DNA of 32,765 nt from Patescibacteria group bacterium (GTDB lineage Bacteria; Patescibacteriota; UBA1384; 2-12-FULL-50-11): positions 1-32,765 of the forward strand of contig JBGOUP010000003.1 in the NCBI GenBank assembly GCA_041477655.1. Reading direction: 5' to 3'. The translations under genes and the position numbers were made by a program. Below the pieces are notes generated by a model that was not told where the DNA came from, did no database searches, and saw only the letters and a list, made by a program, of their open reading frames with translations. Positions 1,749 through 5,659 of the stretch are shown here, in pieces. Numbering within the stretch: position 1 is the stretch's first letter; each line of letters starts with the position of its first letter.

Positions 1749-1776
1749 TTGACAAATGCCAAATGCCATCTATGCT
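1749..1776 (+). promoter_or_regulatory. sigma70-type promoter
   Basis: TTGACA (1749-1754), 16 bp spacer, TATGCT (1771-1776), upstream of ATG 1789. Confidence 0.6.
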
Positions 1777-1788
1777 AAAAAGTGGAGG

Positions 1789-3738
1789 ATGAAGCTAACA
1801 ACACTTTGGATTAAGAGGCCAACGGTTCGTTTGTTGCTGGTGGTTGTTTTGTTGGTCGTAGTTGGTTTAGCTGTTAATTTTAATAAAGGCAATACTTTCC
1901 AAGCCGTTTCCCCAGCACCACCGCCCGAAAATAATGGCGGCGGTGGGGTGAATGGGCAGTCTGGGACCGTCATCCACGTTGCCCCAACCGGTAAAGATAC
2001 TAATGATGGTTTAACTTGGCCAAATGCCAAACTAACCATTGCCGGAGCCTTGTCCGCTCTGCCGACCGGCAATGGGGAAATATGGGCCAAGGAAGCTACC
2101 TATAGTACTGGCGGTACGGTTGTGTCCCAGTCTAATATCAACTTCTACGGTGGCTTTCAGGGTACGGAAACAACCCTGGCCGAACGTCCAGCTGGCAAAA
2201 GATCAACCTTTAGCGGCGGTAATCAGTTTCAGACGTTCAAGGTAAACGGTGCTAGCAATTTTGTCTTTGATCAACTCGGCTTTATCGATGGCACTGTCAA
2301 CTGGCACGGTGGTGCTCTCTACCTTTATTCGGCTACGAATGTAACGATTAATAACAGCGTCTTTCAGAACAGTACCACTACTGCTACTGGTAACGGCGGT
2401 TGTTTGGCGATTATCAACGGGAGTGCTACTATTACTAACTCAATTATCCGCAACTGTGTCAGCGCGGCGACGGGTGGAGGACTTTATGAATTAGGGGCGG
2501 TAGTGAACGCATCAAATCTGTTAGTCGAGAATAATCGCGCTGTTAAAGGCGGGGGTATTGGATTAAGCAGCGGAGATGGATTGATATCGGGAAGCACAAT
2601 CCGCAACAACGTTGCCACCTCCACAACGACCGAGGGCGGTGGCGGAATTTATATGAATACTGTCCAGCGGCTTCATATTGCCCAGAATGTCATCACCGGC
2701 AACTCCGCCAATTATGGCGCGGCGCTGGACTGCTTTAACTACACTACCAACACGATCAAAAATAATATCATCACGCTAAACGTCGCCGGTAGTGCCGCCA
2801 TCAGCGTACGCGGCTATGGCACCGCCACTAACTTCACCAATAATACGATCAGTGATAATCGGAGTACCGCTGGATTTTCGGCATTGAGCCTGTTTGATAG
2901 CGCTAACGCGATACTTCGTAGCGACTTGTACACATATAATAGTGGGCCAAAGGCGGCCATCGGCCATGATGCCAACAGCAATCTAAATGTCGGATATAGC
3001 GGTGCCTGGGGCAACGTCCATGGCACATGGGATCAGGCCGCCGATACTGACACCTATAAGTGGTCAATGTTGGAAGAAGACCCACTTTACCTTAACCGCA
3101 ATTTCCTCACTGATGTGGCCAGTTATCAGCTAACGCCAGCCAGTCCCGGACGCGATTACGGCCAGAACAATTTAGTGAACGACTTTGCTAATGCTTTCCG
3201 CCCAGTTAACTCCCGAGGCTGGAGCACGACCTACGCCGACAAAGGCGCCTACGAGTACCAAAACATCCAGCAATATCTAACTATGGACGGCTGGCGGGGA
3301 CCAAGTGCCGACGGTAAACAAGATTCGGCTCTGGTTCGATACCAAATCTTTGACGCCAACAACAAATTATTGGTAGACACCCAAGCTTCCCAAGCCAGTA
3401 ATGGTTTCTACCTCTTGCCGCTTAATCAAACCACCCCGCCGACTCTGCCGCTCAAAGTTCTGATCAACCCGGCTGGTTACCTAACCAAAAAAATCACTGT
3501 CACCAGTTTGCCCAATCCCTTGCCTACCCAGTTACCGACCGGGGCAAACTTGACCTTAGACGGCGGCGATGTTGATGGCGACAATACAGTCGGCGCTGTT
3601 GACATAAACCGGATCTTCATCAACTACTCCCTAACTAACGCCAAATTGACTGACGGCGATGTTAATGGTGACGGTGTGGTTGACTTACTCGATCTTAATC
3701 GGATCTTTCTTAACTTCTCCAAGTCTGGGGAGATCTAG
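1789..3738 (+). CDS. Membrane-anchored or secreted parallel beta-helix protein with dockerin-like C-terminus; paralog of the upstream gene
   Basis: N-terminal hydrophobic helix, HVAPTGKDTNDGLTWPNAK motif, GGA(L/I)Y repeats, DKGAYEY, and GDVDGDNTV / GDVNGDGVVDLLD. Start 1789 is preferred over 1756 because 1756 lies inside the promoter. Confidence 0.8.
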   Translation: MKLTTLWIKRPTVRLLLVVVLLVVVGLAVNFNKGNTFQAVSPAPPPENNGGGGVNGQSGTVIHVAPTGKDTNDGLTWPNAKLTIAGALSALPTGNGEIWAKEATYSTGGTVVSQSNINFYGGFQGTETTLAERPAGKRSTFSGGNQFQTFKVNGASNFVFDQLGFIDGTVNWHGGALYLYSATNVTINNSVFQNSTTTATGNGGCLAIINGSATITNSIIRNCVSAATGGGLYELGAVVNASNLLVENNRAVKGGGIGLSSGDGLISGSTIRNNVATSTTTEGGGGIYMNTVQRLHIAQNVITGNSANYGAALDCFNYTTNTIKNNIITLNVAGSAAISVRGYGTATNFTNNTISDNRSTAGFSALSLFDSANAILRSDLYTYNSGPKAAIGHDANSNLNVGYSGAWGNVHGTWDQAADTDTYKWSMLEEDPLYLNRNFLTDVASYQLTPASPGRDYGQNNLVNDFANAFRPVNSRGWSTTYADKGAYEYQNIQQYLTMDGWRGPSADGKQDSALVRYQIFDANNKLLVDTQASQASNGFYLLPLNQTTPPTLPLKVLINPAGYLTKKITVTSLPNPLPTQLPTGANLTLDGGDVDGDNTVGAVDINRIFINYSLTNAKLTDGDVNGDGVVDLLDLNRIFLNFSKSGEI

Positions 3739-3751
3739 CCAAATCGCTCCC

Positions 3752-3829
3752 GATATTAATGGTGACGGGACTGTTGGCATACCTGATCTCAACAGAGTTT
3801 TTGTTAACTGGTTGGCAGTTGGGGAGTAG
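3752..3829 (+). pseudogene. Orphan out-of-frame dockerin-like repeat (gene 3'-end remnant)
   Basis: The +1 frame after the stop at 3738 reads DINGDGTVGIPDLNRVFVNWLAVGE*, clearly similar to the terminal repeats of both upstream genes. Confidence 0.7.
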
Positions 3830-5152
3830 CTAGCTTTTCAGTCTGTCAGCTATTTGTTGAGCCAGCTTTGGCATATTCGTAGGCTTCATACCTTGTGTTG
3901 TGATGGCTGGCGTGCCGATGCGAATACCAGAGGGGTTCATTGGCGAGGCTTGATCATAAGGAATAGCGTTTTTGTTGACAGTTATGCCAGCTTTTTCTAA
4001 ACGGTCTTGAGCCTCCTGACCAGTCAGTTTAAGCGGCCGTAGGTCAACCAGAAATAGATGATTATCGGTGCCGCCGGTAATAATTTCCAACCCATTTTTG
4101 ATTAGTTCATCGGCCAATTTCTTGGCATTTTGCTGAACCATTATCACATATAAGCGATAATGCTCCTGCAAGGCTTCCTCTAAACAAACACCGATGGCGG
4201 CGATGGTATTCATATGCGGTCCGCCCTGAATGCCGGGGAAAATAGCTCGATCAATGAGTTCAGGCAATTGACGGTTAGATTTAGAAATGAGTTCGGATTT
4301 CGCCTCTCGACCATTCGATGGGCTCATGGTCGTCTTGAGCGATGTCGAAAGACGACTTTGCTCGAGGCGACCTGAACGATGTTGAACGGTCGGATTTCGA
4401 TATTCGGATTTTCTTGAAAAGATCAATGCTCCTCGCGGCCCGCGTAGAATTTTATGAGTTGTTGTCATAACCACATCGGCGTTATCTGCCCCGAGCGGGC
4501 TTGTGGTGAGCGAAGTCGAACTTGTCGAAGGGCCAAAAGGTGTTGGATGTAAACCAGCCGCAATCAAGCCAGAAATATGGGAAATATCGGCTAAATGATA
4601 GGCGCCAACTTGATGAGCAATGTCGCTAATTCTTTGAAAATCAATTTCTCGAGAATAGGCCGAGGCACCAGAAATAATTAGTTTGGGCTTATGCTCTTTG
4701 GCCAGACGTTCAATCTCGTCATAGTCCAACAAGAAAGTTTTTGGGTCAACATGATAAGTAACGCGGTTAAATAATTTGCCGGAAATGGTCACTTTGTGAC
4801 CATGAGTCAGATGACCGCCGTGAGAGAGCTCCAGCCCCATGAATTTGTCGCCAGGCTCAAGCAATGCGTAAAAAATGGCTAAATTAGCGATTGAACCAGA
4901 ATAGGCCTGAACGTTAACGGCGTAATCGGTTTGAAAAACTTCTTGAGCCAGTTTTTTGACCTGGTTCTCTAGCTGATCAACAACGGCGTTGCCAGCATAA
5001 TAACGCTTGTCCGGATAACCCTCACTATATTTATTAGTGAAATCCGAAGCCAAAGCATCTTTAACCGCATCAGAAACGTAATTTTCCGAAGCAATTAAAT
5101 TAATCGTTGCTCTTTGCCGTTCTGATTCCTGCTTAATTAAATCTTTGATCAT
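3830..5152 (-). CDS. glyA: Serine hydroxymethyltransferase with two in-frame palindromic insertions
   Basis: Motifs LIASENY, NKYSEGYP, GGHLTHG, TTTHKILRGPRG (PLP lysine), FPGIQGGP, GTDNHL and SGIRIGTPA. Confidence 0.97.
   Translation of the reverse strand: MIKDLIKQESERQRATINLIASENYVSDAVKDALASDFTNKYSEGYPDKRYYAGNAVVDQLENQVKKLAQEVFQTDYAVNVQAYSGSIANLAIFYALLEPGDKFMGLELSHGGHLTHGHKVTISGKLFNRVTYHVDPKTFLLDYDEIERLAKEHKPKLIISGASAYSREIDFQRISDIAHQVGAYHLADISHISGLIAAGLHPTPFGPSTSSTSLTTSPLGADNADVVMTTTHKILRGPRGALIFSRKSEYRNPTVQHRSGRLEQSRLSTSLKTTMSPSNGREAKSELISKSNRQLPELIDRAIFPGIQGGPHMNTIAAIGVCLEEALQEHYRLYVIMVQQNAKKLADELIKNGLEIITGGTDNHLFLVDLRPLKLTGQEAQDRLEKAGITVNKNAIPYDQASPMNPSGIRIGTPAITTQGMKPTNMPKLAQQIADRLKS
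4275..4411. repeat. Nested palindromic and heptamer-repeat insertion inside glyA
   Basis: Direct repeat TCGGATTTCG (4293-4302, 4390-4399). Stems TCGCCTC/GAGGCGA (4300-4370), CGACCAT/ATGGTCG (4308-4332), TCGTCTT/AAGACGA (4330-4355) and CGACC/GGTCG (4368-4392). Confidence 0.8.
4488..4533. repeat. Nested palindromic insertion inside glyA
   Basis: The minus strand reads GCCCTTCGACAA[GTTCGACTTCGCTCACCACAAGCCC]GCTCGGGGC. The outer unit resembles CCCCTCGACTACGCTCGGGGC at 19420. Confidence 0.75.
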
Positions 5153-5212
5153 TCATGTTATTTTACTGGTAAATCAGCTAAAAAACGAGCCAATTGAGGT
5201 AAAATAGCGGTG

Positions 5213-5659
5213 ATGAAGCAAATTGCTTTCAATCGAAAAGCTTGGTTTGATTATTATATTTCCGACAATTTTGAAGCCGGGCTAGTTTTGGAGGGACCAG
5301 AAATCAAGGCCATTCGAGACAACCGGGTTAATATTTCAGGTAGCTACATTAAACCATTCGTCACAACCGATGGCGCAACCGAGCTGTGGTGGGTAGGTAG
5401 TCATTTCAATATTGATGGCGATCAGTCTCGAACCAAAAAACTGCTCATGCATCGCCAAGAGATAAATCGCTTGGCCGGAAAACTTACAGATAAGGGATTC
5501 ACCGTTATTCCGCTGGAACTCTACCTAAAGAATGGCATGGCTAAACTGAAAATCGGCTTGGGCGCAAGCAAGAAGAAGGAAGATAAGCGACAAGTGATTA
5601 AAAAACGCGAAACCGACCGAGAGATTCAGCGGAGATTGAACTCAAAAAAGAAAAGTTAG
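5213..5659 (+). CDS. smpB: SsrA-binding protein
   Basis: Motifs NRKAWFDY, FEAGLVLEGPEIKAIR, RTKKLLMHRQEI and DKRQVIKKRE. TAAAAT lies 7 nt before ATG 5213. Confidence 0.95.
   Translation: MKQIAFNRKAWFDYYISDNFEAGLVLEGPEIKAIRDNRVNISGSYIKPFVTTDGATELWWVGSHFNIDGDQSRTKKLLMHRQEINRLAGKLTDKGFTVIPLELYLKNGMAKLKIGLGASKKKEDKRQVIKKRETDREIQRRLNSKKKS

Follow-up and report, generated by a model that had tools for sequence, protein, structure and literature searches.

The window analysed here, a stretch of 32,765 nt that makes up the entire contig C11 (JBGOUP010000003.1) of a Patescibacteria genome (GCA_041477655.1, hereafter G000; 748 kb, 48 contigs, 93.9% complete), carries on its minus strand the gene glyA, which encodes serine hydroxymethyltransferase (SHMT) and whose reading frame contains two segments that relatives lack. 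The larger of them, insert B, is the main subject of this work, and it proved to be a mosaic of hairpin-forming repeat DNA that also occurs between genes elsewhere in the same genome.

3830..5152, minus strand: glyA, serine hydroxymethyltransferase, 440 aa including two inserts, assigned from its open reading frame (ORF) and from Pfam SHMT and PDB SHMT matches.
4274..4411, minus strand: insert B, a 138-nt in-frame mosaic repeat insertion of 46 codons, KSEYRN...ISKSN.
4484..4531, minus strand: insert A, a second in-frame insertion of 48 nt and 16 codons, PSTSSTSLTTSPLGAD, located between PFG and NADVV.

The glyA product matches Pfam SHMT with an E value of 1.4e-140, the match being split into two stretches, and it matches a solved SHMT in the PDB with an E value of 5e-117; the Pfam search of GlyA returned SHMT and related pyridoxal phosphate (PLP) folds only, and no intein domain. 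It is the only glyA found in G000, with one full-length match when the relatives and the genome itself were searched. All columns invariant across 48 homologues are retained, including the PLP lysine of the TTTHK motif (K234).

Alignment of GlyA with 28 full-length relatives, comprising every relative whose locus was available and whose ORF was complete (the partial sequence L038 and matches without a locus were left out), revealed 46-49 extra residues that separate IFSRK from LPELIDRAIFPG. In 28/28 relatives the flanks of insert B are directly joined, with only about seven residues at the site, and insert A is absent as well; the solved SHMTs in the PDB contain neither insert. The low end of insert B may alternatively be set at 4265, depending on how LPEL is paired with the PEL of the relatives. 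Among the best 120 matches from a search of 5.8 billion proteins (119 of them non-conspecific), the modal length was 378-382 aa, and the same inserts were found in P0041 alone, a 245-aa conspecific fragment that differs by one residue and is encoded by a 1710-nt contig covering both inserts. The names attached to the nearest GlyA matches agree with an origin in Patescibacteria/CPR. A first-pass annotation of this DNA had proposed an extra in-frame peptide inside GlyA at 4275-4411, at a place where SHMT normally has few residues, and had suggested aligning relatives to define the empty site, with conservation of the segment as protein in those relatives as the outcome that would speak against it. 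The alignment agrees with the proposal on the peptide and on the short normal site, moves one boundary to 4274, and finds the segment in none of the 28 relatives.

Public Logan contigs from four sediment runs bridge the junctions of the insertion. Contig X1 (4067-4342) crosses the 4274 junction and X4 (4371-4521) the 4411 junction, both with 0 differences, and the 4411 junction is also crossed by X3 (4340-4549) and X2 (4301-4671); no empty-site contig was found among the Logan contigs of these four runs. The first-pass annotation had raised the concern that reads might fail to support the insert, and these contigs speak in favour of it.

In mRNA sense, insert B consists of AAATCCGAATATCGAAATCCGA, the hairpin H1, the hairpin H4 enclosing H2 and then H3, CGAAATCCGA as the second copy of the 10-nt repeat (4302-4293), and an AT-rich tail, with the following components.

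4390..4411, minus strand: 5' AT-rich heptamer-type block AAATCCGAATATCGAAATCCGA (mRNA sense), 22/22 nt identical to the intergenic stretch C22:5182-5203 (E 5e-5).
4369..4391, minus strand: H1, a decayed hairpin module GACC-GTTCAACATCGTTCA-GGTC with a 4-bp stem, recognised by eye and present at the same position in C27 (GGCC...GGCC) and in the relative G007.
4300..4370, minus strand: H4, the outer hairpin, with a 7-bp stem TCGCCTC/GAGGCGA (arms 4300-4306 and 4364-4370), from a nested-hairpin scan.
4329..4356, plus strand: H2, a module GTCGTCTT-GAGCGATGTCGA-AAGACGAC with an 8-bp stem, from an inverted-repeat scan; this module is also found in C27, C32 and C40.
4308..4332, minus strand: H3, a module CGACCAT-GAGCCCATCGA-ATGGTCG with a 7-bp stem, overlapping H2 by 4 nt.
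4293..4302 and 4390..4399, no strand: an exact 10-nt direct repeat, TCGGATTTCG, which brackets an 87-nt GC-rich core (4303-4389).
4274..4292, minus strand: 3' AT-rich tail ACTCATTTCTAAATCTAAC (mRNA sense), read from the sequence.

The loop of H4, GAGCAAAG..TCGA, is split by H2 and H3, and units of the TTCGGATTT type occupy 4292-4300, 4389-4397 and 4403-4411. The first-pass annotation had described hairpins, nested or overlapping, among TTCGGATTT-type repeats and a 10-bp direct repeat on either side of the core, and the inverted-repeat scans recovered this arrangement. The minus strand of 4260-4425 is predicted to fold with -46.7 kcal/mol (z = -3.36), and 0/200 shuffled sequences were as stable. 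No terminator-like site was found within insert B when a terminator or promoter role was examined, and there are no terminal inverted repeats at its 4274 and 4411 ends. A 9-nt repeat, GAACTCATT, has one copy in the tail (4286-4294) and the other in glyA at 4253-4261; a simple model in which it represents a 9-bp target-site duplication was considered and dropped.

Similarity searches of the genome contigs detected the core of insert B at three further loci, all outside long ORFs, giving four copies with the one in glyA.

C27:1507-1627, no strand: core copy, E 2e-42, 90% identical across 121 nt, beginning directly after a stop codon.
C32:166-232, no strand: core copy, E 3e-21.
C40:6096-6163, no strand: core copy, E 1e-13.

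The C27 copy is flanked by the same direct repeats as the glyA copy. In C27 and C40 heptamer-type units build a larger AT-rich inverted repeat around the GC-rich composite; the heptamers in glyA are of the left-arm type only, so that what glyA carries is a fragment of such an element. These AT-rich units (AAATCCGAA and its variants) normally form the arms of long intergenic hairpins, and the genome contains 34 occurrences of AAATCCGAA itself where about 5.7 would be expected. The GC-rich modules, 22-28 nt long, share one design: a 4-8-bp stem closes the loop GAGC-N3-4-TCGA or the complement of that loop. When module hairpins with a stem of at least 5 bp and at most one loop mismatch were counted, the genome had 22 and three shuffles of it had 0, 0 and 1, and a stem of 4 bp or more adjoins 17/31 exact loop motifs, where 0.12 would be expected. 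Taken together with the copies on C27, C32 and C40, these counts bear out the idea, put forward in the first-pass annotation, that the insert is DNA of a dispersed hairpin-repeat family. Over 41 related genomes the loop motif is patchy in number, with 31 occurrences here, 45 in G007 and many genomes at background (for instance G001, 5 against 7 for the control).

The modules also extend far beyond this group. One stem variant matched at least 120 stretches in a species-level genome collection, and its reversed control pattern matched 0; the matches listed span Bacteroidota, Clostridia, Chloroflexota, Cyanobacteria, Planctomycetota, Gammaproteobacteria, Acidobacteriota, the candidate phyla radiation (CPR) and others, cultured isolates included. 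The exact H2 pattern gave a single match across the collection, a near-identical lone hairpin located after a gene in a Bacteroidota metagenome-assembled genome (MAG). The module gtcACCCT-GAGCG[N]AGTCGA-AGGGTg/c often lies tens of bases past a stop codon, in cultured Bacteroidota among others, is sometimes clustered, and was twice seen directly 3' of small GIY-YIG genes. Among 185 ORFs near a module, 97 were scanned (those of 100-400 aa among the nearest 150), and no clear enzyme tied to the modules in other phyla emerged; they were mostly ordinary genes, the exceptions being two small GIY-YIG genes and one 23S rRNA intervening-sequence (IVS) protein gene. Rfam gave 0 matches to 3700-5300 at E values up to 1, whether RNA family, intron or ribozyme, and at eight module loci of other phyla it returned only tRNA and a chance microRNA match, leaving the module uncovered. 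Searches of the main texts of the literature retrieved no paper for the module strings or the short peptide motifs, nor, among the best-ranked matches, any link of palindromic elements or MITEs (miniature transposable elements bearing inverted repeats) with Patescibacteria or CPR.

As a possible source of mobility, the genome contains at least three copies of an IS200-like gene, all at contig ends.

C27:38893-39167; C19:1-320; C20:1-320; C32:1-135, no strand: IS200-like Y1 transposase copies (PF01797).

The subterminal hairpins of this insertion sequence (IS), CCACGGAC-GTYA-GTCCGTGG, are unlike the modules. Given that neither its end hairpins nor its right-end sequence resemble them, the transposase was set aside as the mobiliser and is kept as a lead only. 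In C32, the hairpin composite copy lies about 30 nt past the right end of the IS. In a genome of 0.75 Mb, IS copies that look active would not be expected. No TnpB/IS605 accessory gene (PF07282) was found in G000, and neither a parent IS nor terminal inverted repeats for the modules were found in this genome.

Comparison of copies provides some indication of how the layers of insert B were assembled. In G007, H4 occurs with an uninterrupted loop and is followed by H1 (L040:1505-1551, with H4 at L040:1505-1528), and H2 and H3 are missing, which argues that the nesting is real; that copy is flanked by another direct repeat, of 13 nt, GAAATTTGAAATT. Uninterrupted H4-like hairpins with the loop GAGCAAAGTCGA are also present in this genome, in lepA (C35) and on C19. 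An independent case of nesting was found in a Bacteroidetes MAG (L109:1739-1786), where, within a module cluster at L109:1700-1830, GTTATT-GAGCTTGTCGA-AATAAG lies in the loop of CACCCT-GAGCGGCG..TCGA-AGGGTG and breaks it just before TCGA (G|TCGA), at the same position as here. The glyA and C27 copies show 0 differences in the 78 nt covering H4(H2,H3) and CGAAATCCGAA, and 7 differences in the 22 nt of H1, including a compensatory change in the stem; the confinement of all seven to H1 has P = 1.2e-5. Since the layers differ in their divergence from C27, they appear to have had different histories, through either later insertion or gene conversion. The Russian-doll nesting of hairpins thus seems to be real in part, and the corresponding proposal, that the hairpin family inserts into itself, stands as far as nesting is concerned (G007 and L109) and is not supported for repeated insertion in place within glyA, given that C27 has an intergenic composite with its parts in the same order and a ready-made fragment may have been copied in. 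Calling the 10-nt repeat a target-site duplication is not warranted, since tandem heptamers, such as the array on C23, supply direct repeats in any case. An argument that a division of the insert into 41 + 97 nt implies arrival of the composite as a whole was dropped, as unit boundaries of 66 or 69 nt also preserve the frame.

Insert B is not the only in-frame module in this genome. Insert A contains the module loop GAGCGAAGTCGA at 4508-4519 (plus strand), apparently consists of one module within another with the 5-nt repeat CTTGT on either side, and lies only 11 residues before the catalytic lysine; all four strain single-nucleotide polymorphisms in runs X1-X3 (4489, 4496, 4499 and 4520) fall inside it. 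Relative to other genomes, DnaK (C42:401-2398) has a 10-aa module insert, PSTSSGPGAA, and LepA (C35:8008-9843), checked against relatives, has a 15-aa insert composed of two hairpin modules with GGCGAC at each side. LepA has in addition a second insert of about 30 aa, of the AT-rich type, at residues 65-95, a site that is also occupied in G004 and G007, members of other genera, and is empty in G001, G010 and G017. From reading of the ORFs alone, in-frame modules are also apparent in valS (C16:217-246), in a PEP-utilising enzyme (C37:~4650), at C43:~15200 and at C10:~25327.

Five of the six reading frames of the 138 nt contain stops, and the single open one is that used by glyA, in line with the argument of the first-pass annotation from preservation of the frame. 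AlphaFold2, run on the 48-row alignment, gave a confident core, with a mean predicted local distance difference test score (pLDDT) of 86.9, a predicted template modelling score of 0.87 and 316 residues at or above 90. Values below 50 were confined to residues 215-220 and 256-277, within the two inserts, and residues 256-277 have no secondary structure in the model. The peptide encoded by insert B is hydrophilic, with 10 S, 4 T, 9 K/R and 4 D/E in 46 residues. The same site varies naturally in length: 4 of the 119 non-conspecific GlyA matches have other inserts at it (P0096, P0114, P0115 and P0116), unrelated in sequence, and the distant relatives L035 and L036 have short natural extensions there; 5/119 (P0004, P0005, P0033, P0063 and P0066) have inserts at the site of insert A. 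The P0115 insert begins FSRKSQIRNPK, compared with FSRKSEYRNPT here. In two of the five nearest relatives for which DNA was read, the ancestral codons at site B are AAA CCN GAA (K-P-E), which match AAATCCGAA at 8/9 positions.

At some distance from insert B, the window contains a 660-aa ORF upstream (1756-3738, plus strand) that ends in dockerin-like GDVNGDG..LNRIF repeats, and a further dockerin-like repeat, DINGDGTVGIPDLNRVF, lies at 3659-3829 in a different frame, suggesting a frameshift or a sequencing error near 3730.

We consider it likely, with a probability of roughly 0.72, that insert B is a translated and tolerated insertion of the kind known as Rickettsia palindromic elements (RPEs). 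According to this interpretation, selfish repeat DNA of the genome itself, a mosaic of AT-rich heptamer-type units and of GC-rich modules that stack and nest (H2 and H3 in the loop of H4, with H1 adjacent), would have lodged in glyA, where it would be transcribed and translated with the gene to give a hydrophilic, disordered surface loop of 46 residues that the enzyme tolerates. Only arrivals that are in frame, free of stops and located in permissive loops would survive, and the frame would be open because selection removes those that break it. As to its source, a ready-made fragment copied from an intergenic composite like that on C27 is modestly favoured over stepwise insertion in place; short homology could have guided such copying, through recombination or template switching, the K-P-E codons AAA CCN GAA resembling AAATCCGAA, and under either route the H4(H2,H3) unit would have been exchanged or inserted later.

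Several points weigh against this interpretation. Translation, harmlessness and activity of the enzyme are deduced from sequence, and a 46-residue loop beside the helix with the conserved FPGxQGGP motif could impair the enzyme. One open frame out of six is, taken alone, a one-in-six coincidence. Nothing delimits a mobile unit, be it terminal inverted repeats, a clear target-site duplication or a matching transposase, and an H4 unit of the frame-keeping lengths given above leaves room for stepwise origin. As to the assembly, X1-X4 come from four runs of four studies, one of which may be the sample of the window itself; no single Logan contig covers the entire insert; and in X2 and X3 one contig passes from the repeat flank of C32 into the glyA copy at 4301. 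This jump, a chimeric path of short-read assembly, indicates that the repeat confuses assemblers, yet the junctions are not created by it.

A broader reading is offered tentatively and is on balance unlikely. In this scheme the module itself (22-28 nt, with its GAGC-N3-4-TCGA loop) would be a minimal mobile element found across bacteria, moved by a putative hairpin- or single-strand-specific enzyme, nesting in itself preferentially at G|TCGA and entering coding DNA as well, and the glyA insert would be a snapshot of this process. It is suggested by the uninterrupted host hairpin in G007, the nested case in L109, the contrast of at least 120 matches with 0 for the control, the patchy expansions (31 and 45 loop motifs), and the lack of a match in Rfam, or in the literature for the strings searched.

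Among the explanations that compete with a tolerated insertion, the one that survives best, improbable though we judge it, is that the loop has been co-opted and is kept by positive selection, either as a flexible, basic extension located where eukaryotes have their RNA-binding flap or as regulatory hairpins in the mRNA. The excess of basic residues (9 K/R against 4 D/E), the occurrence of inserts at the same site in independent lineages and the reported binding of RNA by the flap of human SHMT1 in this region are all compatible with it. However, the 78 nt that are 100% identical to the intergenic C27 copy indicate that the insert is recent and would have left no time for adaptation, the inserts of the other lineages are unrelated in sequence, the peptide has a pLDDT below 50, and a permissive loop combined with a repeat-like target sequence explains the recurrence equally well.

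Somewhat less probable still is that glyA is a dying gene, inactivated by the two inserts, in which the open frame would be coincidental or recent. One enzyme does carry two inserts, one of them close to the catalytic lysine, 8/40 of the relatives searched have no GlyA match, and Patescibacteria are known for reduced metabolism; but both inserts are multiples of three without stops, the invariant columns are kept, and the core is modelled with confidence. Moreover, a second strain retains both inserts, its changes being concentrated in insert A only, and in other lineages these two sites are likewise occupied by inserts although the gene is otherwise intact.

That insert B is never translated, whether because it is removed from the mRNA (as an intron-like segment or by RNase processing with re-joining), an option that the first-pass annotation had allowed for, or because ribosomes bypass it, seems very improbable. 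The segment folds stably and direct repeats flank its core, and in yeast, ribosomes bypass mobile GC-rich hairpins of some mitochondrial genes. Against this, the frame is open over all 46 codons and is the only open one of six, which is expected from selection for read-through and would be needless if the segment were removed; the starts of the 10-nt repeats are separated by 97 nt, a distance not divisible by three, so that a hop between them would shift the frame; the Rfam search gave neither intron nor ribozyme; and we know of no re-ligation of mRNA following hairpin excision in bacteria.

The weakest alternative, a repeat copy mis-threaded into glyA during assembly, has in its favour the jump in X2 and X3, the fact that repeats break the assembly elsewhere and the IS200-like gene at contig ends, and it is hard to reconcile with contigs of four runs across the junctions (two of them without differences), with the independent 1710-nt contig encoding both inserts, with an insertion exactly in frame and with the lack of any empty-site contig.

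If insert B is a tolerated insertion, an essential one-carbon enzyme in a 0.75-Mb genome would have accepted 62 repeat-derived residues at two loops with every conserved residue kept. The same two loops have been filled repeatedly in other Patescibacteria, so that selfish hairpin repeats may be a regular source of variation in protein length in this large and poorly studied radiation, beyond Rickettsia. Inserts of this type can inflate or split alignments, break assemblies and pass for lineage-specific domains. A module with a conserved loop that is spread over many phyla and missing from Rfam merits a dedicated study of how its loop is recognised and how it moves.

Insert B can be compared with several known systems. 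We take its position to be equivalent to that of the eukaryotic SHMT flap, judging from alignment ranges and the human sequence and not residue by residue. The flap is described in a preprint (bioRxiv 10.1101/2023.03.17.532973) as a 13-aa beta-hairpin, residues 273-285 of human SHMT1, that is conserved, structured and functional. Both are lineage-specific extra segments between the GxIFxRK strand and the xIDxAVFPGxQGGP helix on a dimeric scaffold; the flap, however, is of protein origin, whereas insert B is repeat DNA, restricted to this species and predicted to be disordered.

The GC clusters of fungal mitochondria resemble insert B in being small GC-rich hairpins that enter coding sequence and one another. 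Bypassed elements, namely the hairpin clusters called 'byp' in those mitochondria and the one in phage T4 gene 60, disrupt the frame or contain stops, and their take-off and landing codons match, whereas insert B is open in frame and the 97-nt spacing of its repeats would not restore it.

The modules share with REP/REPIN (repetitive extragenic palindromic) sequences, BOX, ERIC (enterobacterial repetitive intergenic consensus) and MITEs their short imperfect palindromes, many copies, clustering and modularity, and the genome does contain a Y1 gene of the IS200/RAYT type (REP-associated tyrosine transposase). REPs lie outside genes and accompany a RAYT gene that is single-copy and bordered by REPs; here, in contrast, the Y1 gene is multi-copy with different end hairpins, and modules lie inside genes. 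With respect to MITEs, the 10-nt direct repeat does flank the core, but in a context of tandem heptamers, and the sole transposase found has unrelated ends.

The closest parallel is with RPEs, which are dispersed palindromic repeats found between genes and in frame within housekeeping genes whose ORF they leave intact (Ogata et al. 2000, 2002, as summarised in PMC10969869). Ten families are distinguished in that summary, each RPE being one unit of about 100-150 bp, and their positions are believed to be ones that the protein fold can accommodate (PMC10969869). Insert B likewise belongs to a palindromic, dispersed family of a reduced genome, with copies between genes and in frame in unrelated housekeeping genes, to which peptide is added; it is multi-copy, hairpin-forming and in frame in a conserved gene whose site is empty in all 28 relatives. 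It differs in phylum and is unrelated in sequence, so that it is an analogue and not a member, and in being a mosaic of 22-28-nt modules and heptamers, with one conserved loop, varying stems, nesting and stacking, and a module found in many bacterial phyla. The RPE kind is thus already known, and what is new here is the modular, nested form of protein-coding palindromic repeats in Patescibacteria.

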